From: Bacteroidales bacterium
GTDB taxonomy: Bacteria > Bacteroidota > Bacteroidia > Bacteroidales > UBA3663
DNA length: 64,000 nt
Direction of reading: 5' to 3'
Assembly (NCBI GenBank): GCA_045600445.1
Contig: JAZRXZ010000052.1
Location: 18,771 to 82,770, forward strand
Shown: piece by piece, positions 4,080 through 24,126 of the stretch
Position numbering within the stretch: the stretch's first letter is position 1
Layout of the letters: each line of letters starts with the position of its first letter
The notes under the pieces: generated by a model
Database searches by the model: none
The model's input: only the letters and a program-made list of their open reading frames with translations
Told to the model about the DNA's origin: nothing
Program-made: the position numbers and the translations under genes

Positions 4080-4085
4080 GATTTT

Positions 4086-4838: not shown

Positions 4839-4864
4839 CGGTGATATTTGTTAAATGATTTTGG

Positions 4865-4872
4865 CAAATATA
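4865..4872 (-). promoter_or_regulatory. -7 box (TATATTTG) for xth
   Basis: Exact TAnnTTTG about 26 nt upstream of the ATG at 4838. Confidence 0.55.
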
Positions 4873-4966
4873 AGAAATAATTTCAAATCATGGGTCATTT
4901 GTGCGCAATTTTCCTCGATATTTTACTATTTTTGCACACCTTATTTATTTTATTAGTAAATTTGCA

Positions 4967-4974
4967 CGCGATTT
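4967..4974 (+). promoter_or_regulatory. -7 box (TAAATTTG) for the M13 peptidase gene; a second box TATTTTTG lies at 4927-4934
   Basis: Exact TAnnTTTG about 35 nt upstream of the ATG at 5009. Confidence 0.55.
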
Positions 4975-5008
4975 TAATATATTTACCACATAATTTATAA
5001 TTTCTACA

Positions 5009-8012: not shown

Positions 8013-8218
8013 TTATTCAGGTTAAATCTTTTAGCATTCTTTACCTGAGCCTTGAGGCAGTCATGTGTAGCCTTCTCGTTTCTCCAGTTCTGAAGCTCGA
8101 TAGAGATAACACCGATAATCAAAGCAAGGATTACACCACCGAAGAAGATTACTGCCAACCAGTTGTTGCAGAAACAGAGACCCAAAACCAAGATCCAGAG
8201 AATAGAATTTGTTGTCAT
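8009..8218 (-). CDS. Small membrane protein (69 aa, two predicted TM segments)
   Basis: Hydrophobic N-terminal half and its own exact -7 box at 8270-8277. Confidence 0.5.
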   Translation of the reverse strand: MTTNSILWILVLGLCFCNNWLAVIFFGGVILALIIGVISIELQNWRNEKATHDCLKAQVKNAKRFNLNN

Positions 8219-8269
8219 AGTTGTAATTATTTTGTGGCGTATTGCCGTTAATTATTTTTATTTTCGCTG

Positions 8270-8277
8270 CAAAGATA
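8270..8277 (-). promoter_or_regulatory. -7 box (TATCTTTG) for the 69-aa membrane protein gene
   Basis: Exact TAnnTTTG about 52 nt upstream of the ATG at 8218. Confidence 0.5.
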
Positions 8278-8495
8278 GGAGGAGCTTGTAGTATAAGTTG
8301 ATGTACAAGCTCTGAAAAAATGATGAAACGGCCAAAGAAATTTAAGATTTAGGACAAATTGGGACAAGAATCGGTGATAGAGTAATCATTGAGTAATACC
8401 TGGCATAAAGCGCTTAAAAAGTACTTCTTTGATGGCATTATCGGCTCGTAAATATACATTTTACATTAAAATAGCGAATTTTTCTATTAAAATGT

Positions 8496-8873
8496 ATGAT
8501 ATTTAGAGAAAAAACATTATTTTTGTCGAGCTTTTTTGAGAAATTACTAATAAAAAGAACTACTGTGGCGCAAAATTTGAATACCAGAAGACCAGAAGAG
8601 TGTACAAACATCTCGGAGGTCAGACAAGAGATTGATTTGATTGATCAGGAAATCATCCGTCTGCTTTCCACTCGCTTCTCCTATGTACGCGAAGTGGTGA
8701 AGTATAAGGATGGTACAGCCAGTGGCATTGAGGCTAAGGGTCGTCGTGATGAGGTGATCAATACGCGTCGTCAATGGGCTCAGGAGGCAGGACTTGATCC
8801 TGATGCCATTGGAGATATTTATAATCGCCTGGTAGAGTATTTTATCTTTGAGGAAAAGAAACTGGTTAAGTAG
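8496..8873 (+). CDS. Chorismate mutase type II (AroQ) / isochorismate-pyruvate-lyase-like protein
   Basis: AroQ helix-1 pattern ISEVRQEIDLIDQEIIRLLSTRFSYVREV, plus later RRDEVI...YNRLV. The first ~25 codons of the ORF may not be translated; in-frame GTG and TTG lie near 8566-8580. Confidence 0.65.
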   Translation: MIFREKTLFLSSFFEKLLIKRTTVAQNLNTRRPEECTNISEVRQEIDLIDQEIIRLLSTRFSYVREVVKYKDGTASGIEAKGRRDEVINTRRQWAQEAGLDPDAIGDIYNRLVEYFIFEEKKLVK

Positions 8874-9961: not shown

Positions 9962-10678
9962 TTATATCAACGCTATCACTCCGCTGATTGCCATATAGAT
10001 ATAGATAATTTTCCTCAGCATTGCGATAGGGATCAGACGGAAGACCTTCGCTCCAATCCACGTGCCTATGAGGACGGCTACAATGCCATAGAGCCAGCCT
10101 TCGGCAACAGCAGAAGTGAAATGACCATTGCGGGCACGAAAGAGGGTCATCATTGTGTTGCCAATGAGAAAATACGTCTGTGCCAGCGCCATGTAGTTTT
10201 CTTTCTTCTCAGTGCAAGCCAGGAAATAAAGGACGGCCGGAGGACCCTGCATACCGAAGAATCCTCCCATGACGCCACTGATCGTTCCCATGCTGATCTG
10301 CATTGGCAAGGTAGGTTGTACCTTCACATGTTTGCTGATAAAGAGGAACCACAGAGATACTAAAATAAGCACCCCACCCAGGATGCGCTTCAGCAGACCA
10401 TCGCCCGCTAAAGACACAAACTGGATGGAGATATAGGATACTACTAAGAATGTCAGAAGGATGGGGAGGAGCTTCCTCCACTCGATGAACTTCCACATCC
10501 TTGAGACAATGATGATAGAAGTGACGAGTGCCAGTGACCCGGAGAGAGTCGTAGCTTCAGCATACGATGGCAACAGGTAGGGCAGGACCGTCATGATGAA
10601 GATGCCGAACCCAAAACCTGAGACTCGCTGCACGAAGGCGGCGCCGAGGCTGAACAGAAAGATTAGTAGTATGGTCAT
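9962..10678 (-). CDS. TauE/SafE family sulfite/anion exporter
   Basis: Polytopic membrane protein. The N-terminus FSLGAAFVQRVSGFGFGI is typical of TauE. Confidence 0.8.
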   Translation of the reverse strand: MTILLIFLFSLGAAFVQRVSGFGFGIFIMTVLPYLLPSYAEATTLSGSLALVTSIIIVSRMWKFIEWRKLLPILLTFLVVSYISIQFVSLAGDGLLKRILGGVLILVSLWFLFISKHVKVQPTLPMQISMGTISGVMGGFFGMQGPPAVLYFLACTEKKENYMALAQTYFLIGNTMMTLFRARNGHFTSAVAEGWLYGIVAVLIGTWIGAKVFRLIPIAMLRKIIYIYMAISGVIALI

Positions 10679-10684
10679 TTGGGT

Positions 10685-12991
10685 TTAGAGGTCCATATTT
10701 GGCTTGCAGACATCATGTCCTGCTACGCTCTGAGCCTTAGCCTGAGTATAGACACCCGTGCCGCGGATATCCTCTACGCTTGCACCGAACTTGACAGTGT
10801 ACTTGCCAGCTGCGGTTTCCCAAGCCTGAGTAGCCTCGTTGTAAGAAGCAAGCTCATATGCGCTGACGGTCATAGTAAGTGTCTGGCTCTCACCTGGCTG
10901 GAGCTCACGTGTCTTAGCGAAAGCCTTCAACTCGTTAGCTGGCTTCTCAAGGCCACCTGCAGGAGCAGAGACGTAGAGCTGAACAGCCTCCTTGCCAGCT
11001 ACCTTACCAGTGTTGGTAACGGTGATCTGAGCGGTGAAACCATCCTTGCCTGCCTTAACTACTGGCTTAGAGTATGCGAAAGTGGTGTAGCTCATACCGA
11101 AGCCGAATGGGTAAGAAACCTCTACACCAGCGGTGTTGAAGAAGCGGTAACCCACGTTGAGTCCCTCCTGATGGAGTGTGTAGTCGGTGTTCTTAACTGG
11201 GCCACGACGCCACCAGTTATTACCCTCAGAGATACCTACGTTAGGATAGTTCTGTGAAGAAGGAACGTCTGCACCTGCAATAGGGAAGGTCATGGTGAGC
11301 TTGCCCGAAGGATTAGCCTTGCCGGTCAATACGTCAACTACAGAGTTGCCACCTTCCTGACCTGGCTGCCAAGCCATGAGGATAGCATCAGGAAGACCCT
11401 TCCAAGAAGCAGTTTCAATAACATTGCCCATGTTGAGCACAACAACCACCTTCTTGCCTGCATGGTGGAAGTACTGACATACATTATTAATAAGATCACG
11501 CTCTACCTCAGTGAGGTTGAAGTCATTCTCGATGTGACGGTCAGCACCTTCACCTGCCTGACGGCCGAGGGTGATGAGTGCAATGTCAGCCTTCTTAGCC
11601 TGAGCAGCAATGGCATTGACAGAAACAGCGAGCTCAGGAAGTACTGGCTTACCCCAGCCACGGCCACCACCATTAGCTGCCTGCTGGCTCTCCTGATACT
11701 TCTTATAATCGTAGTAGAGATTCTTGAGATCCTCAGTAACATTGAGACCTGCATTGGTGATACCCTGCATGAGGTCAACGGTGTAAGCCTTGTTAACGTC
11801 ACCCGAACCAGTACCGCCTGCGATGAAGTCGTAAGAGGTAATACCGAAAACAGCTACGTTCTTGACACCTTCCATTGGGAGAGTGTTTGCGTTATTCTTG
11901 AGCAATACCATACCCTCAGTAGCTGACTGGCGGGTTACCTCAGCATGCTTCTGGAGCTCTGGCTTATTGCTGAACTTATAGCCCTGGAAGCGAGGAGTAC
12001 GTACGATGAACTGAAGCATGCGACGGGTGTTGCGGTCAAGGTCTGCCATTGGGATAGTACCCTCCTTTACACCTTCGATGATGCGGTTGATCTCAGTCTG
12101 GTTACCTGGCTCCATCAGGTCATTGCCGGCAATGACAGCTTTCTTGGTACCTTCCTTAGCACCCCAGTCGGTCATGACAATGCCCTTGTAACCCCACTCG
12201 TCGCGCAGGATGGTAGTGAGCAAGCCGTGGCTCTGCTGAGCAAACTCACCGTTGACCTGGTTGTAAGAAGACATAACTGTCCAAGGATCAGACTCCTTGA
12301 CAGCAATCTCGAAGCCCTTCAAGTAAATCTCACGCAAAGCACGCTGGCTGACTACCTCGTTGACAAAGGTACGGTTGGTCTCCTGAGAGTTGACTGCGAA
12401 GTGCTTGATAGAAGTACCTACTCCCTGGCTCTGAATACCGCGAACGTAAGCTGCTGCAATCTTACCAGCCACGATAGGATCCTCAGAATAATACTCGAAG
12501 TTACGGCCACAGAGAGGTGAGCGGTGGATGTTCATACCTGGTGCGAGGAGTACGTCGCAGCCATATTCGAGCACCTCATTACCGATGCTTTGGCCGACGC
12601 TTTCTACAAGTTCCTGATTCCAGGTACAAGCCAGAGCGGTACCTACAGGGAAGCCAGTTGCATAATAAGTGTTTGGATCATTCTTGCGGGTAGGAGAGAT
12701 ACGTACACCAGCAGGACCGTCAGACAATACGGTTGATGGAATGCCTAAGCGAGGGATGGCACGGGTAGCACCAGCTGCACCTGGGACGAGGTCTGCATGC
12801 TGTCCGAGCATGCCGTTCATGTCTTCCGTTGCCTGTGCAATGCTGTAACCTACACAGAGGGTTGCTTTCTCCTCGAGGGTCATAGCCTTGAGGATTTCGT
12901 CGATGTTGTCAGCATTGAGCTTGAGCTGCTGAGCCATCATAGGCTGAGCGCCTAAGAGCAGCGCGAAGGCTGCAAGATTTTTCATCTTCAT
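10685..12991 (-). CDS. Glycoside hydrolase family 3 beta-glucosidase, secreted
   Basis: KGIVMTDWGA nucleophile region with GH3 N- and C-terminal domains and an Fn3-like tail. The start is set at MKMKNLAAFALLLGAQPMMAQ (signal peptide) because an exact -7 box (13039-13046) lies inside the longer ORF call to 13111. Confidence 0.9.
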   Translation of the reverse strand: MKMKNLAAFALLLGAQPMMAQQLKLNADNIDEILKAMTLEEKATLCVGYSIAQATEDMNGMLGQHADLVPGAAGATRAIPRLGIPSTVLSDGPAGVRISPTRKNDPNTYYATGFPVGTALACTWNQELVESVGQSIGNEVLEYGCDVLLAPGMNIHRSPLCGRNFEYYSEDPIVAGKIAAAYVRGIQSQGVGTSIKHFAVNSQETNRTFVNEVVSQRALREIYLKGFEIAVKESDPWTVMSSYNQVNGEFAQQSHGLLTTILRDEWGYKGIVMTDWGAKEGTKKAVIAGNDLMEPGNQTEINRIIEGVKEGTIPMADLDRNTRRMLQFIVRTPRFQGYKFSNKPELQKHAEVTRQSATEGMVLLKNNANTLPMEGVKNVAVFGITSYDFIAGGTGSGDVNKAYTVDLMQGITNAGLNVTEDLKNLYYDYKKYQESQQAANGGGRGWGKPVLPELAVSVNAIAAQAKKADIALITLGRQAGEGADRHIENDFNLTEVERDLINNVCQYFHHAGKKVVVVLNMGNVIETASWKGLPDAILMAWQPGQEGGNSVVDVLTGKANPSGKLTMTFPIAGADVPSSQNYPNVGISEGNNWWRRGPVKNTDYTLHQEGLNVGYRFFNTAGVEVSYPFGFGMSYTTFAYSKPVVKAGKDGFTAQITVTNTGKVAGKEAVQLYVSAPAGGLEKPANELKAFAKTRELQPGESQTLTMTVSAYELASYNEATQAWETAAGKYTVKFGASVEDIRGTGVYTQAKAQSVAGHDVCKPNMDL

Positions 12992-13152: not shown

Positions 13153-14496
13153 TTATTTCACCGAGTCATTCGCAATACTGTCGGTCGAGAATACGATAGT
13201 ATCTGCAGGGAGCTCTGGCGTGTCATCGGGTTGGTCGTAATTATCAGAATCAAACCACTCTGACGGATCATCCCAATCGGAACTTGTCGTATTTATATAT
13301 ATATGTGCATTCTTGGCGAGGTGTCCAGCCGAAGACAACAGGCCGACGATGGCGCATCCGAGACCCAGCACAATGCCAAGGATACAGCAGACAATCGAGG
13401 TGGTAGACATCTTCTTGTCTGAACCTCTCAGCCAACGGACGATGAGCCAAATAATGACAACGAGTACTACGATGACTGCGATAATTCCGATCAGCATCGG
13501 CACTTTGGCCGTACTCAGCAAGGCTGGTAAACCCTCTAATGGTGTTGCATCGAAGAGATTACCTATGAGTTCGCGTCCAATGCCCACTACGGTAACAAGT
13601 GCAATGAAGAACCAAAAGAGCGTAATCAGGATGATAGGGAGCATTAAGACCAGACAGCCTCCGAAGAAAACCTTTAGGCAACCGCTGTTGTTGTTCTGCT
13701 GCTGCTGGTAGCTGGCGTGAGCTTGAGTCTCATCGTGATGGCTGGTAGCTGACTCGCGGAGGATCTCTGCGTTGATATTCTCTGGTGTAACGTTTTCACC
13801 TTTCATGCGCAGCATGTCCTCTGGTGTCTTGGCCTCTGGCATGATGATCCAGAGAATGATATAAAGTACAGGTACACTGATATTAATAACGTCTGGTATC
13901 CACCGAGGCATATAAAACATGAGGAATACGGTCAAGCCGAGGAAACCCAGTCGCCAGAAAGTAGCGTCATTGATACCCGTATCTTTTCCTCCATTAAAAA
14001 ACAAGGCTAAACCAGAACAGACACCACCGAGCTTTTTGTCCTTTGGGTTGCGGTAGAGGTGGCGGTCATTCAGATTCCACTTGTTCTTATTGCCTTCGTT
14101 GGTCGTACTATCGTAGGGCTTACCTGTATAACTTCCAGTATTGCTCGAAGTATTCCCAGTATTGCCTGCACCATTTCCAGTAGTATTTCCTGAAGATTTG
14201 AAAGTTCCATTTTCTGCACTTTCATTCTCCTCCTTGCCATCAATCTCAGCAGGATTACCGATCTTGGCAATGATCTCCTTGATCATGTCTATGTCGATGG
14301 CCTCGTTGCCTTCCTCTTTCTTCTGCCACATGAGCTCAGCCACACGGTGTTCAATGTCATCAGCAATCTCCTCGCCGCCTTCCTGACGGGCAAAGTAGCT
14401 CTTCATCGAGTCTGTGTATTTCTGCAGCAAAGCGTATGCATCTTCGTCAATGCAGTATAATGAACCGAAAAGGTTGATCGTGATATTCTTTTTCAT
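13153..14496 (-). CDS. PspC-domain membrane protein
   Basis: PspC motif LYRNPKDKKLGGVCSGLALFF, several TM segments and a low-complexity G/N/T-rich linker. Confidence 0.8.
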   Translation of the reverse strand: MKKNITINLFGSLYCIDEDAYALLQKYTDSMKSYFARQEGGEEIADDIEHRVAELMWQKKEEGNEAIDIDMIKEIIAKIGNPAEIDGKEENESAENGTFKSSGNTTGNGAGNTGNTSSNTGSYTGKPYDSTTNEGNKNKWNLNDRHLYRNPKDKKLGGVCSGLALFFNGGKDTGINDATFWRLGFLGLTVFLMFYMPRWIPDVINISVPVLYIILWIIMPEAKTPEDMLRMKGENVTPENINAEILRESATSHHDETQAHASYQQQQNNNSGCLKVFFGGCLVLMLPIILITLFWFFIALVTVVGIGRELIGNLFDATPLEGLPALLSTAKVPMLIGIIAVIVVLVVIIWLIVRWLRGSDKKMSTTSIVCCILGIVLGLGCAIVGLLSSAGHLAKNAHIYINTTSSDWDDPSEWFDSDNYDQPDDTPELPADTIVFSTDSIANDSVK

Positions 14497-14500
14497 ATAG

Positions 14501-14902
14501 TTAATAGGTTATTGTGTCATTGATAAATGGTTCTGACGGTGTTATCACTTCTGCTGCCTCCGGCTTTGCCTCAATCAGCGTATTCTTGAGCGCATTTACC
14601 GTGTAAGCCAACTCGTTCCAACTGTCATCCAGCTGTCGCAGCGCCTCCTCACCATCAAGTGTCAGCGCATAATACTTACGCGGAGGTCCTTGCAAGCTCT
14701 CTTGCCATTCATACTTCAGGAGCTTATCATTTTTAAGGCGGGTAAGGAGAGGATAGAGTGTCCCTTCCACCACGAGCATCTTCGCATCCTTCAGTTGAGC
14801 GATGATGTCGTTGGCGTATGAAGGCGCGCGATGGAGGAGTAGCAGGATGCAATACTCCAACATACCTTTGCGCATCTGAGATTTAGTGTTGTCAACGTTC
14901 AT
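14501..14902 (-). CDS. PadR family transcriptional regulator
   Basis: Winged-helix PadR pattern MLEYCILLLL...GTLYPLLTRLKNDKLLKYEW...PRKYYALT. Confidence 0.85.
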   Translation of the reverse strand: MNVDNTKSQMRKGMLEYCILLLLHRAPSYANDIIAQLKDAKMLVVEGTLYPLLTRLKNDKLLKYEWQESLQGPPRKYYALTLDGEEALRQLDDSWNELAYTVNALKNTLIEAKPEAAEVITPSEPFINDTITY

Positions 14903-14985
14903 AGTTCTTTCGTTTGTTTGTGTTAGTTTAGGTCAATAATGCTTGTTTGCATCGTTTATTTTATCATAATTATTGGTTTGCGCTG

Positions 14986-15025
14986 CAAAGGTAGGCATAA
15001 TTTAGATACTATGCAATACATAGTA
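14986..15025 (-). promoter_or_regulatory. PadR/PspC operon promoter (-7 box TACCTTTG, 14986-14993) plus upstream palindrome TACTATG-CAATA-CATAGTA (15007-15025)
   Basis: Exact -7 box. The 7-bp perfect inverted repeat is a candidate PadR operator. Confidence 0.45.
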
Positions 15026-15083
15026 CTGAGAAAATGACAAATCTTAACAAAATTTAAACGTTGATTCCTATATTAATAAATGT

Positions 15084-15560
15084 TCATGCGCGTAGTGATT
15101 CGTTCCACTTTTTCACCACATACTGATAGTAGCTCCGATACATCGCTTGTTGTTTCCCTTTGGCACCTGACAATTCGAAGCTGTGTTTATAGTTGGCTGT
15201 AAGTTTGTCAAGTAGCTTCACACACTTACTGATACTCGTACGTTCACTGGTTACTTTGGCGCCGAAGTGGCGAGTTATGGCAAAGAGGAAGCCTTGCAGA
15301 TTATTCTGCATGTTTTTTTCGGTGGTATAATAAAGGAAGATGATTGACCAGAACAGGGTTTTACTCATACCGCGATCTGGGCCGAACAAAAAATCATGTC
15401 TCGTATTCGGTCCTCCTTCTTTATAATAAAGCCTGAGCATAGCTTCGCCACGGCAGAAGAACTCTTCCTCACTTTCCGTTGAGCAGAAAGGGTTCTCCAC
15501 CGGGCGACCTACAGCACGTTTGGCCTTAGGTGTTATGTCTTCGTCATCTGTCCAGAGCAT
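15084..15560 (-). CDS. Hypothetical protein (158 aa), island cargo
   Basis: Long ORF 5 bp downstream of the 329-aa gene with protein-like composition and an AT-hook-like KRAVGRPV near the N-terminus. No family recognised. Confidence 0.55.
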   Translation of the reverse strand: MLWTDDEDITPKAKRAVGRPVENPFCSTESEEEFFCRGEAMLRLYYKEGGPNTRHDFLFGPDRGMSKTLFWSIIFLYYTTEKNMQNNLQGFLFAITRHFGAKVTSERTSISKCVKLLDKLTANYKHSFELSGAKGKQQAMYRSYYQYVVKKWNESLRA

Positions 15561-15565
15561 GTGCT

Positions 15566-16555
15566 TTACTCCTCTTCAATATCATCCCAGATATCATCAT
15601 CCATCTCTTCCTCTTTTGAGAACAACGACACTCCCAGCGCATCCAGTGTCAGGAAGTTCCACGAATAGCTCTCATCGGGGGTCGATACGTCATACTTGAC
15701 CATCAGCGCCTTCCATTGGGCATGGAGTGCATCCATCTGCTCCTGTGACGGATGGCGTTCTCCCATCGTCCAATGCTCTCTGATCCAAGCCGAAAGCTCT
15801 CGGGCGCAGAGCACCTGATTGTGCCGATAGGTAGGGTCGATGAAGGTGTCGAACGAGTCGTATACCGATTGCTCCAGCAGGTCAAAGCCCAGCAGCTGAC
15901 CCACCAGGATATGGTTCTCGATTTCCCAAAGATCTTCTGCACACTTGCAGATGGCGGCAGTCAGAGCCTTCTGCTTTTCGTCCGTCTTAGTGCATCTCTT
16001 CCATTCCTGATTTACCTGATATTCAAACGATTCTGTTGCCTCCTGACGCGCCACACATGAGTATTTCTCCACATCCATCCAGATCTGGTGTTCCAAGTCA
16101 TAGAGGATGGCCGCCGACAGGTAAGGCATGGGTTGGCCGATGGCCGGATCTCCCTGACAGATCAGCTCAAAAAGCTCCTTGTTTTCGAAGCTCGATGTTC
16201 CATTATTCAAGTTCCATGGCCAAGCCGACCAATCAATCTTCCTACCGCGGAATAGCGGATAGCACACCTCCTTAACGTCCAGATAGAACCCCAGACGCAC
16301 GCGCTTCTCAGCCGAAAGCTGATTGATCTGGCTCAGGTCTCTGACCAGCTCACACAACTCCTGATCGTCAAATACCTCAAGCGTATATTCGGTGATCTGT
16401 GAGTACCGACCCTCGCAAAACATCACATTATTGGCCGTTCTTAGCACCAATTGGCGATATTCCTCGCTCTTTTTTTCGGGCAGATGGGCGAAGTCAACGT
16501 CCTTTATGAAGTGGTCATAATAACCTATGATAATATCTAAAGTCCACGATTTCAT
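15566..16555 (-). CDS. Hypothetical protein (329 aa, Trp-rich, acidic C-terminal tail EEEMDDDIWDDIEEE), island cargo
   Basis: Long ORF with its own -7 box (16612-16619). No family recognised. Confidence 0.6.
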   Translation of the reverse strand: MKSWTLDIIIGYYDHFIKDVDFAHLPEKKSEEYRQLVLRTANNVMFCEGRYSQITEYTLEVFDDQELCELVRDLSQINQLSAEKRVRLGFYLDVKEVCYPLFRGRKIDWSAWPWNLNNGTSSFENKELFELICQGDPAIGQPMPYLSAAILYDLEHQIWMDVEKYSCVARQEATESFEYQVNQEWKRCTKTDEKQKALTAAICKCAEDLWEIENHILVGQLLGFDLLEQSVYDSFDTFIDPTYRHNQVLCARELSAWIREHWTMGERHPSQEQMDALHAQWKALMVKYDVSTPDESYSWNFLTLDALGVSLFSKEEEMDDDIWDDIEEE

Positions 16556-16611
16556 ATGCTTAGCTTTATTTGTGGTAGGGGCGGAAGAGCATTCCTTCTC
16601 AAATCCTGACG

Positions 16612-16619
16612 CAAAGATA
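16612..16619 (-). promoter_or_regulatory. -7 box (TATCTTTG) for the 329-aa/158-aa gene pair
   Basis: Exact TAnnTTTG about 57 nt upstream of the ATG at 16555. Confidence 0.55.
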
Positions 16620-16647
16620 ATACTTTTCCGTCACCCTACCAAATTTA

Positions 16648-16687
16648 GTACACTCTTTTTCTTATTGTTAATTGTTATTTGTTATAA
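16648..16687 (+). repeat. 41-bp heptad-repeat element, copy a
   Basis: GTACACTCTTTTTCTTATTGTTAATTGTTATTTGTTATAA. It is the inverted partner of copy b (3 mismatches). Confidence 0.9.
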
Positions 16688-16729
16688 CCCTCGGCAAAAG
16701 CTCTTTCTATGGCTGCGAGGACCTTACTC

Positions 16730-19069
16730 TCAGGCGGCCGCTTGCATCACCTTCTGGTATCTACCATCGCCCACCTTTCTCACCAATCCGTCAGCCACCC
16801 ATCGGCTGAGCACCATGGCCACCTGAGCATTAGCACCATTCTGCAGACGTAGGGCAATGAGGTCTTGTGTCGTGAAGTCATTAGCGAGCAATGAGAAGAG
16901 CTTCTTATTCTTCGACATACGTGTCTGGCTCTGTTGCAAGGCGTTATCCACCTCGTTGATCTCCTCGTAGGCCTTTCCGCAGAAGGTATAGACACTCTGA
17001 CGCATCGCCTCGGCCGTCCACTTCACCACCTTGCCAATCTCCGCTATCTGCTTCTCATCGGTCGGACAGCCACGCAGGAACCACTCCAGTACGCCCACTC
17101 TCATAGCCACTACCAGCGAGCGCTTGCCCAGATCGTACCACACCTCATCAGGATTCTCGTCATCTTCCTTATCCCACTTATTCTTAATGAGCAGGATATT
17201 TTTTTCGAGCCAAGGCAACTGCACCTTATTACCGTCCTTGCCCGCCTGTGTGAGACGGTCACAAACCTCCTCAAACTGAGCACGTTCAGTATCGGTAAAC
17301 TTCTCATAGTGAGGGAATCCCTTCATTCTCACCTTTGGCATGAAAGCGTAGAGGATTCGGTTGTTGAGGCCACCTTCCGGATTACTGTAGAACTTGTGCA
17401 TAGCGCCCGGAGTACCACAGAAAAGCGTGTTGAGGAAGATCGGGATACGGATGTTTCGTGTCTGCTTACTCTTCGATTCCTTGCCTCCTATGGCATTGTC
17501 GAACGCCTTGCAGTAGAGGTCATCATTGTCTCCATAGATGGTGCGCTTGGCTTTCTGCAGTCGCGCCACCTCCTCGGTAAACTGAATACCGTGCTCGCCC
17601 TTCAGATTGTCCAGATACTCCAGAAACTGACTCGTTGTGATGTCATCACCATAGATTCTGACACGTGGGCGAGGGTCATCGGGTTTCTCCGAGTCGTCCG
17701 AAGCCTTGTTGCATATCGCTAAGTACTCATCGGCTTTCCGGCGTTCCAAAGCATCCTGCACCCTGATTCTCTGCGTCATCTGCTCGAAGAGATGAGCTGC
17801 GAAGGCCTTGCCCGAACCACTCTTGCCCACCACGGCGGTCATGAACGAGAGGGAGTTCTCGCGGCCATCCATGTAATCGAAACGGATATGCGTGCCATAC
17901 AAACCCCAGATCGGAAGCATAGACATAAATGCCTGTGCACGAAGGTGTTTTGGATAATGTGCGAGTATCATCTCCTCCACGGCCGAGAGCTTTGGCAGTT
18001 TGGCCAACTGCACCACTTCTGTATCTTCCTGCTGGTCAATGCTCTCGTTCTTCAGCTCGCTCAATACGCCTCGCATCATCGGAGTGATGGTTCGTCCGTT
18101 GGTAGCAATGGCGCTGCCGATGGTGCGGCGGATCTCCCCGTCAGGCAAGCCCTCGAAGTAAGGCGCTGTGAGCATATATACCGTCTGGAAGTTGTACTCG
18201 CAGATGTGGCGCAACTCACGCACCAGCGCAAACAATACATTATTACGCTCACCCACCTTAGCCACTCCCTGAGTAGCCAGTCGCTTCAACAATGCCTCGA
18301 TGATGGAGCTGTATTTGATGCCGTTGTAGGAGAAGCTATCTGCGATGTTCTGCTGAGCAGTGTTCCCATTTGAAGAATTTGCTCTTGTTTCGCTCATATT
18401 CCCATGCTGGGTATCTGCAGCTTGAGGCAACTTTAAGACCTCCTCCCTTTGAGGGCTCTCACAGCCAAGGCTTGATAAGCCTTCTCGAGAAAGTGGGGTA
18501 GGTCTTTGTCTTTCAAACAAGCCTTTCTTATCCCAAAACATCAGATATTCGTTGCCAGGCAGAAACGACAGTCGTGTAATGTCCTTGATCTTCTCATCGG
18601 CAAACTGCTCCATGCCAAACTGTGCAGCTATTCTTGCCTGGCACTCGCTGATCTTCTCACCTTCGCCCAACACCGTCACCAGTCGAAGTCCCTCGCCGCG
18701 AGGAGTGATGTGCACCAGCACAATACCCAGTTCATGCTCATGGCCCGCGATGTTCTTGATATAGAACAGGCGAGGCGACTCTGGCATGTGATCCCAGTCG
18801 TGGATGCAGAACCCGCTCTCCACGGCAAGCCCGTTCTGCGCCGAAGGTCGCTCCCCGTTTTCGGTCATCTGGCAGGCAAACAGTATCACCGGCAACTGCT
18901 GCTTCCACTGACTTTTCTTCTCCTGATCTGTTTCGGCCTTGATGCGAGCCATTGTCTCGCGTACCTTCTCAGAGTTTATCAACTGCTCGAAGCCCTCAGC
19001 AGTCAAAAGTTTCATGGATTTTTCCAAGCGGGAATCCATGTACCCGATTTGAATGAATTTTTTGTCCAT
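16730..19069 (-). CDS. Mobile-element primase-helicase-like protein (VirE/BT4734-type N-terminal region + DUF3987-like P-loop NTPase)
   Basis: Walker A VVGKSGSGKAFAAHL within a core typical of DUF3987. The N-terminal ~170 aa resemble the BT4734/VirE N-domain. An iteron array lies immediately upstream. Family names are from memory. Confidence 0.7.
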   Translation of the reverse strand: MDKKFIQIGYMDSRLEKSMKLLTAEGFEQLINSEKVRETMARIKAETDQEKKSQWKQQLPVILFACQMTENGERPSAQNGLAVESGFCIHDWDHMPESPRLFYIKNIAGHEHELGIVLVHITPRGEGLRLVTVLGEGEKISECQARIAAQFGMEQFADEKIKDITRLSFLPGNEYLMFWDKKGLFERQRPTPLSREGLSSLGCESPQREEVLKLPQAADTQHGNMSETRANSSNGNTAQQNIADSFSYNGIKYSSIIEALLKRLATQGVAKVGERNNVLFALVRELRHICEYNFQTVYMLTAPYFEGLPDGEIRRTIGSAIATNGRTITPMMRGVLSELKNESIDQQEDTEVVQLAKLPKLSAVEEMILAHYPKHLRAQAFMSMLPIWGLYGTHIRFDYMDGRENSLSFMTAVVGKSGSGKAFAAHLFEQMTQRIRVQDALERRKADEYLAICNKASDDSEKPDDPRPRVRIYGDDITTSQFLEYLDNLKGEHGIQFTEEVARLQKAKRTIYGDNDDLYCKAFDNAIGGKESKSKQTRNIRIPIFLNTLFCGTPGAMHKFYSNPEGGLNNRILYAFMPKVRMKGFPHYEKFTDTERAQFEEVCDRLTQAGKDGNKVQLPWLEKNILLIKNKWDKEDDENPDEVWYDLGKRSLVVAMRVGVLEWFLRGCPTDEKQIAEIGKVVKWTAEAMRQSVYTFCGKAYEEINEVDNALQQSQTRMSKNKKLFSLLANDFTTQDLIALRLQNGANAQVAMVLSRWVADGLVRKVGDGRYQKVMQAAA

Positions 19070-19125
19070 AATTAAAATTTATAGTTAATAATCCGAGCCA
19101 TTATTTTTCGCTCGTTTTTCGATTG

Positions 19126-19133
19126 CAAATATA
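19126..19133 (-). promoter_or_regulatory. -7 box (TATATTTG) for the primase-helicase gene
   Basis: Exact TAnnTTTG about 57 nt upstream of the ATG at 19069. Confidence 0.55.
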
Positions 19134-19185
19134 CATAAAAAAATCCGCGTTTACAAGCCTTTTCTCGCCAAAAGAATGGATTTAT

Positions 19186-19265
19186 AATTAGTGTGGCATA
19201 ATATCGAATTAGTGTGGCATAATCCGTAATTAGTGTGGTATAATATCATAATTAGTGTGGCATAA
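19186..19265. repeat. Four iterons AATTAGTGTGG(C/T)ATAA at 21/21/22-bp spacing (origin-like)
   Basis: Copies start at 19186, 19207, 19228 and 19250. Confidence 0.9.
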
Positions 19266-19294
19266 CTTATGACTGTTCTCGACCATAAGTTATG
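19261..19294. repeat. 11-bp inverted repeat CATAACTTATG / CATAAGTTATG (12-nt spacer) abutting the last iteron
   Basis: Read directly. A T9 tract follows at ~19316-19325. Confidence 0.85.
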
Positions 19295-19368
19295 ATAACG
19301 GTCGGTCATGAGTATGTTTTTTTTTCAGCTTGTCATAATCTATTTAACGAAGACTGATATTCCACGAT

Positions 19369-19407
19369 TATAACAAATAACAATTAACAATAAGAAAACA
19401 AGTGCAC
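19369..19407 (-). repeat. 41-bp heptad-repeat element, copy b
   Basis: TTATAACAAATAACAATTAACAATAAGAAAACAAGTGCAC, the reverse complement of copy a. Confidence 0.9.
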
Positions 19408-19496
19408 CTATTGAGTTAAAGAAGAGAGAAGATGTTCTATATATATAATAGGTATATTTAAAACTCCTTAGAAATTTTCCGTAAAATTCCCTTCCA

Positions 19497-19537
19497 CCCA
19501 CACTATTTTCCTTATTGTTAATTGTTAAATGTTATAA
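19497..19537 (+). repeat. 41-bp heptad-repeat element, copy c
   Basis: CCCACACTATTTTCCTTATTGTTAATTGTTAAATGTTATAA. It is the inverted partner of copy d (2 mismatches). Confidence 0.9.
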
Positions 19538-19636
19538 CAGGTGTTTACCTCAATATAAGCCGTTATAAAATCGAATGCTCTCTTTCTGCGCCAAGGCATC
19601 CTCTTTTCGGTACGCAGTTTAGCATGCCACGCCCAA

Positions 19637-19670
19637 GGCATCCCTTTCACAGTACCGTGACAAGGATGCC
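19637..19670. other. GGCATCC...GTAC...GGATGCC hairpin, the same family as the hairpins at 28672-28832
   Basis: GGCATCCCTTTCAC-AGTACC-GTGACAAGGATGCC. A weaker relative with a CGGTACG centre lies at ~19596-19635. Confidence 0.7.
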
Positions 19671-19838
19671 ACGATCAAGAATTGCAGCTTCCGAAATCCT
19701 GACAGCCTTTTCTTGGCCGTGGATTTCAACATCGCGTACCAGATGTCAGTATTCTTGATGTGCGAAACTGCATTTTGAATTTCGAATGTAAAAAAACGTA
19801 TCGACACAGGTAAAGAACACGAACATGTTAGAATAATA

Positions 19839-19880
19839 AAGACCTCCACTTTCGCTAAGATTGTGGAGGCCTTATTTTTT
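19839..19880. terminator. Hairpin terminator with a strong T-run on the plus strand and a weaker one on the minus strand
   Basis: AAAGACCTCCAC-TTTCGCTAAGATT-GTGGAGGCCTT followed by ATTTTTTT. It may also terminate the minus-strand gene ending at 19935. Confidence 0.65.
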
Positions 19881-19886
19881 TATAAT

Positions 19887-19925
19887 TGTAACATTTAACA
19901 ATTAACAATAAGAAAAATAGTGTGG
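19887..19925 (-). repeat. 41-bp heptad-repeat element, copy d
   Basis: TGTAACATTTAACAATTAACAATAAGAAAAATAGTGTGG. It lies between the stop codon at 19935 and the hairpin at 19839-19880. Confidence 0.9.
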
Positions 19926-19934
19926 TTGTCGCTG

Positions 19935-20849
19935 TTAGATGTGTTTAATCAGGTGTCTGCCCCATACCACGATCATCGCAAAAAGGACGCGGGTAGAGAT
20001 GATCCACCACGCTGAGATGCCGGTGATGGCGAAGACGATGGTATCTTCGAGCATGGAGTGATTCATGATGAGGTGGTAGTTCACATCGTTGGCTTCTTTG
20101 GGGGTGATGACGCCTTTCTCTTCCAGTTCGAGCATCACGGCTGAACCGTAGCTGAGGCCTAAGACGTTGCCTACGAGCCACATATAGGTGGCTTGGCGCG
20201 ATAATCCGAAGACGTGCATCAGTGGCGCGAAGAATTGAGAGAGCTTCGGCAGGAGGTTATAGGCTTCGATGAGACGCTGGATGACCATCAATGAATAGAT
20301 GATGCCGAAGACCATGACCACCATCTTCAGCTGGGAGAGGAGCCAGGTGTAGAGAACTTCCATGAGGCTACTGTCGGCCGCAGCACCCATATAGGCGTAG
20401 GCTTCGGGCATGTCAGGAAGCACAATATTTAAATAGTACGCGCATACGAAGGCCATGATGATGCGGATGATGCCCATTTTGATGAACGAGGAACCGGTCT
20501 TCTTGCACACCGCACACTCCATAGGCAAGGCGTGGCAGAGCGCAATCATCAGACAGATAATCGTGGCTTGGCGTAAGGTGAGTGGGATGGACATCATGGC
20601 CGCAACACCCGCATAGGTGCCAGCCGTGGCTCCGGTGATGAAAATAACGGCCGAAGACCCTGGTAATCCCATGTACTGAAAGATGGGATTGAGGTATTGT
20701 GCAATCCACTCGAGGATGCCGAAATGCTGCAGCAATGCCACAGCTAATGAGATAGGAATCATCAGCTTCAAGAGCCACTTGGCACTTTTGAGTGTAGTTG
20801 GCCAAGCGGCTTTGAGGCTATATAGTAGTTTCTTTTTGAACTGAGACAT
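19935..20849 (-). CDS. Nucleoside-recognition (Gate) domain membrane protein
   Basis: Polytopic membrane protein resembling Bacteroidales nucleoside recognition domain proteins (assignment from memory). Confidence 0.55.
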   Translation of the reverse strand: MSQFKKKLLYSLKAAWPTTLKSAKWLLKLMIPISLAVALLQHFGILEWIAQYLNPIFQYMGLPGSSAVIFITGATAGTYAGVAAMMSIPLTLRQATIICLMIALCHALPMECAVCKKTGSSFIKMGIIRIIMAFVCAYYLNIVLPDMPEAYAYMGAAADSSLMEVLYTWLLSQLKMVVMVFGIIYSLMVIQRLIEAYNLLPKLSQFFAPLMHVFGLSRQATYMWLVGNVLGLSYGSAVMLELEEKGVITPKEANDVNYHLIMNHSMLEDTIVFAITGISAWWIISTRVLFAMIVVWGRHLIKHI

Positions 20850-20854
20850 GTCTT

Positions 20855-21877
20855 TTAGATATTCTTCTTGGCTGCTTCGAGTGCCGCAATGACACGGTCA
20901 CACCATGCATCGTAATCAGGATCTTCTTCCTGACACTCAGGATGCTTGAGGATATAATCTACGGCCATGCGTGCACCCTGGTCGAAGCGGACAGTGGCGC
21001 AGAAGCCAGGGACGGCGCGCTTGAGTTTGGTATTGTCGAAGAGTACAGAACATGACTTATCTCCGATGAGGCCTCCCTCAAAATCGTACTTAGGACCTAC
21101 GGCATGCATGAACTCTGCAGCTACATGATAGGCCTTGAGCTCTACGCCGAGAGCCTGTGCAACGATCTCGTGAATCTGATTCCAAGTAAGGTGCTCATCG
21201 CTCGTGATCTGGAAGGTCTCGCCGATGGCGTGCTTATTGCCCATAAGGCCAACGAAAGCCTTGGCGAAGTCGCTGTTGTGGGTCACCGTCCAGAGCGAAG
21301 TGCCATCGCCCGGGATGATGACTGGCTTGCCATCGAGCATACGCTTGAGTACCTGCCAGCTGCCTTTCGTGCCGTGTGCTGCTACTGGGATACTGCGCTC
21401 GCAGTAGGTGTGGCTTGGGCGGATGATGGTGATAGGGAAACCTTCGTTGCGGTACCACTGCATGAGGAGGTTCTCGCAGGCGATCTTGTTGCGCGAGTAC
21501 TCCCAGTAAGGGTTGCAGAGAGGCGTACCCTCGGTGATGTAAGGCGAGGAGAGTGGCTTCTGATAAGCCGAAGCCGAGCTGATATACATAAACTGGCGTG
21601 TCTTACCCTTGAAGAGGCGATAGTCACGCTCGAGCTGAGTAGTTACGAAACCGATGAAGTCGCAGACAACGTCGAACTGCAGATCCTTGATAGCTTCAGA
21701 GACCGTTTTCTCGTCGTCAATGTCTGCTACGATGGGCTTGACATTAGCCGGAAGTTCGCTGTTGCGATTGCCACGATTGATGAGATAGAGTTCCCAACCT
21801 GGAGTCTGCGCTACAAGAGCGGTGATTGCTGAACTGATGGTGCCTGTGCCACCGATGAAGAGTGCTTTCATTTGCAA
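20855..21877 (-). CDS. NAD-dependent epimerase/dehydratase (extended SDR)
   Basis: Rossmann motif FIGGTGTISSAI and catalytic YSRNK (YxxxK). Confidence 0.8.
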   Translation of the reverse strand: MQMKALFIGGTGTISSAITALVAQTPGWELYLINRGNRNSELPANVKPIVADIDDEKTVSEAIKDLQFDVVCDFIGFVTTQLERDYRLFKGKTRQFMYISSASAYQKPLSSPYITEGTPLCNPYWEYSRNKIACENLLMQWYRNEGFPITIIRPSHTYCERSIPVAAHGTKGSWQVLKRMLDGKPVIIPGDGTSLWTVTHNSDFAKAFVGLMGNKHAIGETFQITSDEHLTWNQIHEIVAQALGVELKAYHVAAEFMHAVGPKYDFEGGLIGDKSCSVLFDNTKLKRAVPGFCATVRFDQGARMAVDYILKHPECQEEDPDYDAWCDRVIAALEAAKKNI

Positions 21878-21916
21878 AGGGGGGGTTATTTATTATAATA
21901 TGGTATTGTTTTAGGG

Positions 21917-21924
21917 CAAAGATA
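21917..21924 (-). promoter_or_regulatory. -7 box (TATCTTTG) for the SDR gene
   Basis: Exact TAnnTTTG about 40 nt upstream of the ATG. Confidence 0.5.
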
Positions 21925-22168
21925 CCGCTTTTTGCAGAGATTTCCAATTATCCCTTGCTATGTATATCTTAGAATGACTAATGAATCGTTGATTTGTTAT
22001 CCAAATGTAGCAAAAATGTAGCATCTTTACTAATTCTTATTTTTCTTTGATCGATTTTTAGCTAGATTTTTGGAGGGTTTGCGCAAAAACTATTCCTTTG
22101 CAATGTGATATTAAAATGATATCATAATTAATCCTACTATTATATAACCAAAAACCTCTAATTAAATT

Positions 22169-23119
22169 ATGGAAAAGAGTAAAGAATTTGAGTTTAAGGG
22201 CGGTTCGATGAACGGTTTCCTGATGTTGATCCTCGTTTTGGCAATGATTGTTGCTATGGTGTATTGTTTCATTGAGAGTGTCGGTCCTGCTGATGAGTTC
22301 TATGTCCTTCCTTTCACTGCTGGTATCATTCTGTTGATTGCCTGGATTATCGGACTTTGTGGTTTCTCTATGCAAGAACCAAACGAAGCCAAGGTACTCA
22401 CATTCTTCGGTAAGTATGTCGGCACTTTCCGTGCTACTGGTTTCTACTGGATCAATCCATTTATGAGCGTTAAGAAGGTAAGTCTTCGTGCCCGTAACTT
22501 CAATGCAGAGCCTATCAAGGTCAATGATAAAGCAGGTAATCCAGTGATGATCGGCCTCGTAGTCGTTTGGCGCTTGAAGGATACTTATAAGGCTATCTTC
22601 GATATTGATACAGACGTTGCAAACTCAAATACTGTTGGCAATGCTTCTGGATTGAGAATGAATAAGTTCGAGAAGTTTGTAGCCGTACAGAGCGACTCTG
22701 CTCTCCGTCAGGTTGCTGGCATGTATGCATACGACAATGACGGTGATGACGAGAAGGAGGTAACCCTTCGAAGTGGCAGTGATGAGGTCAATGAGGTATT
22801 GCTCCGCAAGCTCAATGAGCGCCTTGAGCAGTCAGGCCTTGAGGTTACTGAGGCACGTATCAACTACTTGGCATACGCTCCAGAGATTGCTGCCGTGATG
22901 CTCCGCCGTCAGCAGGCTGCTGCTATTATTACTGCTCGTGAGAAGATTGTTGAGGGTGCTGTTTCGATGGTTAAGATGGCGCTTGATAAGCTCTCTGCTG
23001 AGGAGATCGTTGACCTTGATGATGAGAAGAAGGCTGCTATGGTCAGCAACTTGCTCGTAGTACTCTGTGCTGATGAGCCAGCTCAGCCGGTGATTAATTC
23101 AGGCACTTTGAATCATTAA
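22169..23119 (+). CDS. SPFH/Band-7 domain protein
   Basis: N-terminal TM segments, an SPFH core (EAKVLTFFGKYVGTFRATGFYWINPF...) and an Ala-rich coiled C-terminal part. Confidence 0.8.
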   Translation: MEKSKEFEFKGGSMNGFLMLILVLAMIVAMVYCFIESVGPADEFYVLPFTAGIILLIAWIIGLCGFSMQEPNEAKVLTFFGKYVGTFRATGFYWINPFMSVKKVSLRARNFNAEPIKVNDKAGNPVMIGLVVVWRLKDTYKAIFDIDTDVANSNTVGNASGLRMNKFEKFVAVQSDSALRQVAGMYAYDNDGDDEKEVTLRSGSDEVNEVLLRKLNERLEQSGLEVTEARINYLAYAPEIAAVMLRRQQAAAIITAREKIVEGAVSMVKMALDKLSAEEIVDLDDEKKAAMVSNLLVVLCADEPAQPVINSGTLNH

Positions 23120-23155
23120 TAGGCCTTCAATTAAGGATTGTAAATATAGAAGATT

Positions 23156-23578
23156 ATGAAAGTCTATCCTTCACGTGTAAGTGTCTCTATGACATGTTTC
23201 ATCACGTTGATGATGGGTTATACAGGGTTTGTTGTATACCAATCTGGAGATATTGTTCCTATTATAGTTCTCGTTTTGGCTTTCCTGTTTGTTATGGCTA
23301 TTATGCTCACAATCAGGTATTATGTTGATCCAGAATCAAAGACACTTAAGATTAAGGTGTGTGGCTTGCCTTCTGGAACCGTAGATTTGACGGAGGTAAA
23401 GCGCATCTATAAGTCGAAAAGTATTCTGAGTGCACCTGCTGCATCGCTCCAACGCATCTGTCTTGATATCAAGGCAGGTCCTGATGTGCTGGTTTCGCCT
23501 CGTTATCAGCAGGATTTCCTCGAAGAGATCAAGAAGATCAATCCTGAGATTGACATTGATAAACAATTGCTGGATTGA
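23156..23578 (+). CDS. Membrane protein with a bacterial PH-like C-terminal domain
   Basis: Two N-terminal TM helices followed by an ~80-aa soluble domain. It lies 36 bp after the SPFH gene. Confidence 0.45.
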   Translation: MKVYPSRVSVSMTCFITLMMGYTGFVVYQSGDIVPIIVLVLAFLFVMAIMLTIRYYVDPESKTLKIKVCGLPSGTVDLTEVKRIYKSKSILSAPAASLQRICLDIKAGPDVLVSPRYQQDFLEEIKKINPEIDIDKQLLD

Positions 23579-23587
23579 TGAACGCCT

Positions 23588-23611
23588 TGTAACATTTAAC
23601 AATAAGAAAAA
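23588..23611 (-). repeat. Shortened copy e of the heptad-repeat element (lacks one TTAACAA heptad), ending 2 nt before the Arc-like start codon
   Basis: TGTAACATTTAACAATAAGAAAAA compared with copy d TGTAACATTTAACAATTAACAATAAGAAAAA. Confidence 0.8.
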
Positions 23612-23613
23612 CA

Positions 23614-23814
23614 ATGGCCAAGAAAGAAGGAAACACTACTAAAAGCTTTGTACTACGTGTCGATGGCGCTACGATGGATGCTATCGAGGCGTGGGCTGCT
23701 GATGAGTTCCGTTCGGTCAACGGCCAGATACAATGGATATTGGCCGAGGCGCTCAAAAAAAGCGGCAGGCTGAAGAAAACGAAAGCTTCGCTCCAACAGC
23801 CTGCTGAGGAATAA
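23614..23814 (+). CDS. Arc/MetJ-type ribbon-helix-helix DNA-binding protein
   Basis: KSFVLRVDGATMDAIEAWAADEFRSVNGQIQWILAEALKKSGR matches a beta-strand plus two-helix RHH pattern. Confidence 0.65.
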   Translation: MAKKEGNTTKSFVLRVDGATMDAIEAWAADEFRSVNGQIQWILAEALKKSGRLKKTKASLQQPAEE

Positions 23815-23829
23815 ACAAAAGAGTGATTT

Positions 23830-24126
23830 TTACGGATTTACCATAACCGCTTCCAACTGATCTTCATTCGGCCAATGTGGCAGGAAGAACAGTGGAAGCG
23901 GTTTTCCGCCTACCCCTGTCCAGTCAATCCTGCGAATATAGTTGAAGTCTGGTCCTCCGAAGTCGAAAGAACGTCCATAGAGGAGAATAGCACAGCGAGC
24001 GTGGTCAATCTTCCAGAGACCACCACCATAGCAGGTATCTTCTCCTATATTTAATAAGTCACGATGCAGGTATACGTTGCCGAAGCGAAGCTCTCCGTCT
24101 TCAGAGATGATGAATTTCTGATACAC
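23830..24126 (-). CDS. Hypothetical protein (98 aa, GTG start)
   Basis: Protein-like composition (YGGGLWKID...LYGRSFDFGGPDF). The start codon in the sequence is GTG and there is no in-frame ATG. It lies 76 bp downstream of the CYTH gene. Confidence 0.45.
   Translation of the reverse strand: MYQKFIISEDGELRFGNVYLHRDLLNIGEDTCYGGGLWKIDHARCAILLYGRSFDFGGPDFNYIRRIDWTGVGGKPLPLFFLPHWPNEDQLEAVMVNP

Follow-up and report, generated by a model that had tools for sequence, protein, structure and literature searches.

A putative free-standing restriction-subunit domain and an AT-hook-like protein accompany a fused primase-helicase gene in Bacteroidales

The DNA analyzed here, called the window throughout, is a stretch of 64,000 nucleotides (nt) from a Bacteroidales bacterium (contig JAZRXZ010000052.1 of assembly GCA_045600445.1, positions 18,771 to 82,770, forward strand). 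It contains two adjacent genes coding for proteins of 329 and 158 amino acids (aa), which an earlier reading made from the sequence alone (the sequence-only reading) had described as two domain-less cargo proteins with their own promoter, downstream of a replicase gene. The pair behaves as a core partner of that replicase. The 329-aa protein is, judged by profile comparisons through intermediate members of its family, a free-standing and very diverged copy of the C-terminal domain of HsdR, the R subunit of type I restriction enzymes, and the 158-aa protein remains a new family in which an AT-hook-like N-terminus with an invariant G-R-P is followed by a globular helical body. We tentatively favour the interpretation, still short of an even chance, that both proteins are accessory subunits of a compact replication module resident in the chromosome (a mini-replicon). 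The genes and sites on which this description is based are the following.

15084..15560, minus strand, open reading frame (ORF) of the 158-aa protein, from ORF translation
15486..15533, minus strand, AT-hook-like motif TPKAKRAVGRPVENPF, residues 10-25 of the 158-aa protein, from conservation and predicted disorder
15566..16555, minus strand, ORF of the 329-aa protein, from ORF translation
15569..15622, minus strand, acidic C-terminal tail FSKEEEMDDDIWDDIEEE, residues 312-329 of the 329-aa protein, net charge -10 over 18 residues
16730..19069, minus strand, 779-aa replicase, a fusion of primase, DUF3987 helicase and a segment resembling a winged helix-turn-helix (wHTH)

Results

Homology of the 329-aa family to the R-subunit C-terminus

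Scans of Pfam, NCBIfam, PHROG and PADLOC gave no direct match for the 329-aa or the 158-aa protein of the window, and the comparison of the former with the Pfam model PF11867 yielded nothing at E <= 0.1. PF11867 is the Pfam entry T1RH-like_C, formerly DUF3387, and describes the helical domain at the C-terminus of R subunits in HindI-like type I restriction enzymes. The relationship to this domain was found through distant family members. One of them, P0102, was retrieved by the narrow profile of the close 329-aa subfamily (A1) with E 3e-18 and matches PF11867 with E 6.3e-8 and 32.8 bits, the curated cut-off being 26.8; it is among the 4/48 family members that match the model at E <= 0.1. For a wider comparison, the C-terminal 420 residues of 11 real type I R-subunit genes from plasmids were aligned. 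Plasmid genes were taken as comparators because the HsdR of EcoKI, fetched for this purpose, carries EcoEI_R_C and not PF11867. When the wide alignment of the 329-aa family (A3, with the window protein as its first sequence) was compared by hhalign with the 11 HsdR C-termini, a probability of 96.4% and E 1.4e-9 were obtained over 264 columns; the match runs from residue 18 to residue 304 of the window protein and corresponds to positions 729-1023 of 1050 on full-length R subunits. The values were 95.7% and E 1e-8 after dropping the 10 members with direct similarity, and 89% and E 2e-6 for the 17 closest relatives alone. Reversed and column-shuffled controls gave E 0.04-0.94, and HsdM, HsdS and the 158-aa family, used as further controls, E 0.1-0.7. 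The hidden Markov model (HMM) of A3 assigned 17-34 bits to 10/11 HsdR C-termini and at most 3 bits to reversed sequences, HsdM and HsdS; in the opposite direction, the HMM of the 11 HsdR C-termini met the window protein with E 4.8. Remnants of motifs can also be followed from one family to the other, VGQLLGFDLLEQSVYDSF in the window corresponding to G..LGL..dE.AFYDAL in HsdR, ARELSAWIRE to A.EL...IR, and KYDVSTPD to KYGYPPD. The likeness to PF11867 of HindI-like HsdR amounts to profile homology over about 265 columns, nearly the whole domain, with diverged landmark motifs. The window protein differs in its setting: its gene is a stand-alone ORF with its own promoter rather than the C-terminus of an HsdR polypeptide behind a nuclease and a superfamily 2 (SF2) motor, hsdM and hsdS are not its neighbours, a DUF3987 helicase is, and an acidic tail with Trp has been added.

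The AlphaFold2 model of the 329-aa protein has an all-helical body and is confident (predicted local distance difference test, pLDDT, 91.9; predicted template modelling score 0.87). Neither the profiles A1 and A3 nor P0102 found a real match when the PDB was searched by sequence. Foldseek, the route that had been proposed for checking the sequence-only reading, returned no family from the PDB (best E 1.3, TM < 0.25) or from the viral models of BFVD (best E 0.44). That no PF11867-type structure came up in the PDB searches would explain why the fold searches remained empty.

The composition noticed earlier is borne out: the protein has 12 Trp (3.6%), 9 Cys, and 62 Asp and Glu residues against 31 Lys and Arg, and it ends in the strongly acidic tail listed above, the last part of which (residues 320-329, pLDDT < 50) is predicted to be disordered. 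With a net charge of -6 or lower within the last 20 residues as criterion, the tail is kept in 26/31 close homologues, with W or F inside it in 25/26, and it is absent from homologues P0029 and P0040. The proposal that such tails point to a DNA mimic finds no support in the model. Like Ocr and ArdA the protein is acidic, but its acidity lies in the 18-residue disordered tail and is not arrayed over a DNA-shaped surface, its body being a confidently modelled helical fold, and Pfam, PHROG, PDB and Foldseek searches revealed no sequence or fold likeness to ArdA, Ocr or ArdB/KlcA-type anti-restriction proteins. The link to restriction that the sequence-only reading had supposed holds as apparent homology to a restriction-enzyme domain and fails as DNA mimicry. 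Likewise, the term domain-less no longer fits the 329-aa protein, whose family is homologous to PF11867, and still fits the 158-aa protein.

The 329-aa family comprises 42 clusters in a collection of 5.8 billion proteins and 54 representatives among 1.84 billion proteins. Both proteins of the pair belong to small families confined to Bacteroidales, and the larger gene is present in fifteen species genomes, nearly all from uncultured Prevotellaceae/Bacteroidales of the rumen, the horse and other animal guts. In one distant member, P0104, residues 62-113 match the Pfam domain DnaB_2 very weakly and below the cut-off (E 0.0095); as DnaB_2 concerns replication initiation and membrane attachment, this is a faint hint towards replication.

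The 158-aa protein

Homologues of the 158-aa protein form 39-43 clusters, none of which carries a Pfam domain. Its model (pLDDT 81.9) shows a disordered N-terminus followed by a five-helix globular domain. The AT-hook-like motif noticed in the sequence-only reading is in the disordered segment and is strongly conserved. KAKRAVGRPVENPF is near-invariant among homologues, and G18, R19 and P20 are invariant in 23/23 sequences of alignment A4 (A2 and A4 are alignments of this family), homologues at 17-31% identity included. The window motif KAKRAVGRPV has V-G-R-P where a canonical AT-hook has R-G-R-P, and a distant homologue in the related locus L036 has the canonical AT-hook KKKRGRGRP. The hydrophobic segment LFWSIIFLYY, reported in the same reading, is also present and falls within the helix of residues 67-80 (pLDDT about 92-95) of the globular bundle. 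A membrane span was considered for it and rejected, as the helix is modelled in the buried core and its hydrophobic run is only about 13 residues long.

No match to the 158-aa protein was found in the PDB by sequence or by fold, a profile search for remote relatives returned only the same small family, and no relatives outside the gene trio described below were detectable. Its derivation from HsdM or HsdS was rejected as well, since hhalign against HsdM, HsdS and HsdR gave E 0.27-0.73.

The two proteins carry similar residues at one terminus each. The 158-aa protein begins with MLWTDDED (window 15552-15560), a M-x-W-x-D-D-D pattern whose Trp is invariant in A2, and the 329-aa protein ends with DDDIWDDIEEE (window 15569-15601), in which a Trp is likewise placed within an acidic cluster. 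To judge from this resemblance, both clusters may be one shared short docking motif.

Linkage to the replicase gene

The replicase gene, a gene for a protein of about 325 aa and one for a protein of about 160 aa occur together in all 20+ loci with a long enough contig. In every locus with enough sequence the neighbour of the pair is a DUF3987 protein of 750-825 aa encoded on the same strand. The linkage extends to strongly diverged trios. In locus L034 identity to the window proteins is down to 41% for the replicase and 21% for the 329-aa homologue, and the small protein is recognized by hhalign with E 8e-20; in L036 (4756-8786), L037 and L038 the order is permuted and the pair lies upstream of the DUF3987 replicase. 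Because the linkage holds despite permuted order and about 20% identity, the label of cargo is not apt for the pair. Co-occurrence of the two genes across genomes, whose absence would have spoken against the earlier reading, is thus strict, and homology to a housekeeping family was found for neither protein. Loci L037 and L038 share a metagenome or run with L002 and L003, which have the standard order; hence two diverged versions of the trio coexist in one community.

The replicase itself combines several recognizable parts. Pfam DUF3987 is matched by residues 393-609 (E 1.6e-12), with GKSGSGKA as Walker A motif, and the N-terminus carries the motifs IHDWD, GLR and KD of a BT4734-like archaeo-eukaryotic primase (AEP). 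These motifs are retained in the 41%-identical protein of L034. Weak similarities were found at both ends in PADLOC, to RTasVirE-PriCT2 for residues 6-186 (E 0.0026) and to the AbiEi wHTH for residues 742-773 (E 8e-4). DUF3987 was shown experimentally to be the 5'-3' replicative helicase of a Bacteroidota mobile element, where it partners with a BT4734-like primase-polymerase whose motifs were defined in the same study (PMC11724360). In locus L002 the deposited replicase call (2913-5390, 825 aa) begins about 160 nt upstream of the conserved start and spans both the diverged iterons and the TATATTTG promoter box; as it covers these elements, its start is probably mis-called.

The dN/dS values of the three genes, 0.10-0.23, indicate that the whole unit is under purifying selection; these ratios of non-synonymous to synonymous substitution were computed against relatives at 65-82% identity and are rough, since dS is near saturation.

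Promoters, iterons and repeats

The sites that accompany the three genes are:

16612..16643, minus strand, pair promoter of the Bacteroidota type, with -33 TTTG, 20 nt and -7 TATCTTTG, from a two-part site scan
16648..16687, plus strand, copy of the ~40-nt element with three heptamers (TTGTTAN), between the replicase gene and the pair promoter
19126..19133, minus strand, -7 box TATATTTG in the promoter of the replicase, at a conserved position with respect to the iterons across loci
19185..19269, minus strand, four iterons of 21 nt that share the core CCACACTAATT, upstream of the replicase promoter
19368..19537, strand not assigned, inverted pair of ~40-nt elements around an AT-rich TATATATATA tract, from repeat analysis

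The two ORFs of the pair are as first described: their junction reads TAA-agcac-ATG, a gap of 5 nt. The -7 box TATCTTTG reported at 16612-16619, next to the element copy at 16648-16687, is also confirmed and is preceded by the -33 TTTG at the correct spacing. Two-part promoter sites number 9 in the window, against 1.26 expected from shuffled sequences. In 13/20 related loci the pair promoter precedes the start codon by about 64 nt. These data support the 329-aa and 158-aa genes as a conserved, co-transcribed pair with its own promoter.

Upstream of the replicase, iterons were seen in the window (19185-19269) and in L001, L004, L008-L010, L012-L018, L034, L041 and L050. The core CACACTAAT recurs with a phase of 21 nt in 2-4 copies in 15/16 loci, L017 having one exact copy, and the iterons of L002 are diverged versions. 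Wherever both elements were observed, 52 or 62 nt separate the last core from the -7 box downstream of it in most loci, and 41 and 73 nt in two. The iteron core and this distance are retained down to a replicase identity of 41%.

Further copies of the ~40-nt element, direct and inverted, are at 19368-19407, 19495-19537, 19886-19928 and 23590-23605. While one inverted pair encloses the TATATATATA tract, another pair brackets the replicase gene together with the iterons. The layout of inverted repeats (IRs) around TATATATA is found in at least 8 related loci, with arms of about 30-40 nt that each contain three short repeats; the arm sequences are lineage-specific (TGTGATT, TGTAAGT, TTGAAA), and copies of them occur elsewhere in those genomes. 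The inverted pair with the TATATATATA tract is a possible DNA-unwinding region of an origin. For the ~40-nt element as such the candidates are an origin-unwinding element, an invertible segment or a dispersed repeat similar to miniature inverted-repeat transposable elements. The Rfam scan, which covered 14000-24000, gave a match to Phe_leader at 19833-19933 (minus strand) that is below threshold (28.5 bits against a gathering value of 55, E 0.2), and it was discarded as probably due to chance; a terminator-like hairpin and one of the ~40-nt element copies overlap with it.

Genomic setting

The unit extends from about 15084 to 19930, that is 4.85 kb. A mobile element could not be recognized around the unit: no integrase, transposase, transfer or packaging ORFs were found within 15084-19930 or in the flanks, no tRNA in the 64-kb window, and the only repeats of the unit are the short dispersed ~40-nt elements. 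Its neighbours are PadR and PspC genes at one end and genes for Gate-domain, epimerase and SPFH proteins at the opposite end, while GH3 and peptidase genes lie at a greater distance; hsdM, hsdS or other type I restriction-modification (R-M) genes are not among the flanking genes. Close relatives have the same flanks. In other lineages the unit is flanked by PheT and SprA, by an esterase and a HepT toxin-antitoxin, by NDK, by TyrS, or by a response regulator. The site occupied by the unit thus varies with the lineage, its neighbours being housekeeping genes.

An extrachromosomal form was sought in two ways. Short contigs showed no terminal overlaps indicative of a circular form, and no plasmid or phage record matching the 329-aa protein was found in PLSDB, INPHARED or IMG/VR. 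The replicase, searched in the plasmid collection only, had no match there.

Genes of possible defence character were seen in the vicinity of the trio. In L002 a HepT-like/nucleotidyltransferase toxin-antitoxin pair lies directly downstream of it (7866-8526). The window has a DUF4435 gene (25038-25967, minus strand) and an AAA_15/AAA_21 ATPase gene (27788-28624, plus strand) that are not adjacent and lie 5-9 kb from the unit, and in L036 an adjoining DUF4435 and AAA_21 pair is 1.5 kb from the trio (10325-12188). The presence of DUF4435 and AAA_21 genes near the trio may be fortuitous or reflect a loose link to a candidate defence pair.

Discussion

With iterons and the IR-TATATATA-IR layout upstream of its replicase, the unit looks like an origin, a replicase and two partners. 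Iteron-controlled replicons have a Rep gene preceded by direct repeats that bind Rep and by an AT-rich unwinding region. The unit resembles iteron plasmids and satellite replicons in having 2-4 direct repeats of about 21 nt (two helical turns) by the replicase promoter and an AT-rich tract between inverted repeats; it differs from them in being chromosomal, with no episomal form seen. In the mechanism that we tentatively prefer, the origin-like region (IRs around TATATATA, then the phased CCACACTAATT iterons), the replicase, and the pair expressed from its own promoter would form one module. The 329-aa protein would be an adaptor coupling the helicase to a partner, and its acidic Trp tail would serve as a peptide for docking or auto-inhibition. 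The partner on the DNA side would be the 158-aa protein, its disordered GRP motif contacting AT-rich DNA at the origin or at the iterons while its helical body binds the 329-aa adaptor. Both roles have counterparts. In related type I enzymes such as EcoKI and EcoR124I, the R subunit uses its C-terminal region to attach the DNA motor to the DNA-bound methylase core complex, and acidic aromatic tails act as docking or auto-inhibitory peptides in the single-stranded DNA-binding protein SSB and in phage replication proteins. The gene trio, the cis elements, the homology, the folds and the purifying selection are what the analysis shows; that the proteins of the unit would make physical contacts, bind DNA and have some replication activity we infer.

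To our knowledge, only one case of a stand-alone DUF3387 gene has been studied experimentally; it is cyanobacterial and its phenotype is in DNA replication. When the SYNW1659/1658 operon of Synechococcus is disrupted, phage DNA is replicated less and the burst size falls; a direct role in DNA replication was put forward by the authors (PMC5490813). This phenotype lends independent support to a function of the pair in replication. By its description, the operon of Synechococcus WH8102 is similar to the pair in having a stand-alone DUF3387-type gene first and a small gene of unknown function second (PMC5490813). The similarity has its limits: SYNW1658 is a DUF1651 protein that is not matched by the 158-aa protein, the phylum is another one, and no adjacent primase-helicase or iterons were reported there. 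The replicase, in turn, finds its closest counterpart among the systems compared here in AgaPP/AgaPH, a BT4734-like primase-polymerase and a PriCT-DUF3987 helicase of integrative elements of Bacteroidota, together read as the replication machinery of a mobile element (PMC11724360). Shared are the DUF3987 helicase and the primase motifs (D-x-D; G-L-K/R). In the window, however, primase and helicase are fused in the 779-aa protein, and integrase, tRNA and prokaryotic Argonaute (pAgo) are absent; descriptions of the AgaPP/AgaPH elements mention no HsdR-like or AT-hook partner genes.

Several points weigh against the mini-replicon. The HsdR C-terminal domain usually goes with an SF2 motor and not with a DUF3987-type helicase, so that the adaptor role is an analogy. 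The homology on which this role is built is transitive, resting on intermediates, since the narrow subfamily falls below detection: the A1 profile against HsdR gave E 1.2e-3 and a probability of 19% in hhalign, and the A1 HMM fails to discriminate. As no episomal form was seen, the unit may no longer replicate at all. The wHTH-like segment of the replicase could by itself bind the iterons without the 158-aa protein. Finally, a joint loss of acidic tail and AT-hook was rejected, as the partners of the tail-less P0040 keep KRAVGRP.

Three other explanations have to be compared with the replication module. The trio could be a chromosomal module of defence or exclusion that senses or attacks invading replicons, for instance by interfering with phage replication, which we regard as unlikely. 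A small cassette lacking an integrase at variable chromosomal sites among housekeeping genes would be in keeping with it, as would the homology to a restriction-enzyme domain, the weak resemblance of the replicase ends to the VirE-PriCT2 module of defence reverse transcriptases (N-terminus) and to AbiEi (C-terminus), and the HepT/nucleotidyltransferase and DUF4435-AAA_21 pairs near the trios of L002 and L036, respectively. Yet neither protein of the pair matches a defence model of PADLOC-DB 2.0, those of the replicase are weak (E 8e-4 and 2.6e-3), a nuclease or another effector domain could not be detected, and the window neighbourhood is one of ordinary metabolism and not a defence island. 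Phased iterons and an origin-like AT-rich region are hallmarks of replicons and not of known defence systems. The pair could instead exert transcriptional control over the replicase, with the 158-aa protein as repressor or activator on the iterons and the 329-aa protein as an anti-repressor acting through its acidic tail; this is rather improbable. In most loci the iterons do stand where an upstream operator would, at a constant distance from the -7 box of the replicase; TAATT, which an AT-hook could plausibly bind, is part of their core, this core and the GRP motif both stay almost unchanged over deep divergence, and the pair is transcribed independently. This support is positional, however. 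A simple anti-repressor would not have to be nearly as large or as conserved as the 329-aa protein, which is homologous to a domain of a motor enzyme, and the replicase has a wHTH-like segment of its own. Control of the replicase overlaps with the replication module and does not exclude it.

A further explanation takes the restriction homology literally. The 329-aa protein would be a decoy of the HsdR docking domain that occupies the M2S cores of the host, blocking assembly of the restriction-proficient enzyme and leaving methylation intact, with the 158-aa protein as helper or regulator; we hold this to be quite unlikely. Similarly low is the likelihood we give to the broader idea that the protein either titrates host type I methyltransferase cores or hijacks DNA-bound cores as landing pads for the helicase of the element. 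The homology spans the whole C-terminal ~300 residues of PF11867-type HsdR, a region that, by analogy with other type I enzymes (EcoKI and EcoR124I), would mediate assembly with the methylase core, and the pair has its own conserved promoter. The lower phage yield on knockout of the stand-alone DUF3387 operon also fits a protein that dampens restriction (PMC5490813). On the other side, the unit has no genes for transfer, excision or packaging and no matches in PLSDB, INPHARED or IMG/VR, and without transfer machinery or a plasmid or phage form a need to protect incoming DNA is hard to place. A generic anti-restriction gene would be expected on many kinds of elements, whereas the pair is seen only beside one replicase lineage. 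The extreme divergence from HsdR, noted above in the E value of 4.8, ill fits an interface kept specific for a host enzyme, type I R-M genes are not nearby, and the 158-aa protein is unlike HsdM and HsdS. An anti-restriction role of the 329-aa protein is therefore not favoured on the comparisons available.

The unit is apparently an unusually minimal and undescribed genetic element, made of an origin-like region, a fused primase-helicase and two partners, with no integrase. The combination is new: what appears to be a diverged stand-alone restriction-enzyme domain is joined with an AT-hook-like protein in an integrase-less primase-helicase unit. Were the decoy explanation true, it would be a new principle of anti-restriction, based on mimicry of an enzyme subunit rather than of DNA; and under either the decoy or the landing-pad explanation a minimal replicon of gut Bacteroidales that lacks an integrase would have recruited a domain for the assembly of restriction enzymes. 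For the domain family, the homology would mean that the C-terminal domain of HsdR exists in a free-standing form tied to a non-restriction helicase. The trio would then be a second and independent instance of the DUF3387 domain being linked to replication, in this case with its partners and cis elements defined. For the gut and rumen Bacteroidales, these relationships offer a first clue to the function of two hypothetical protein families.

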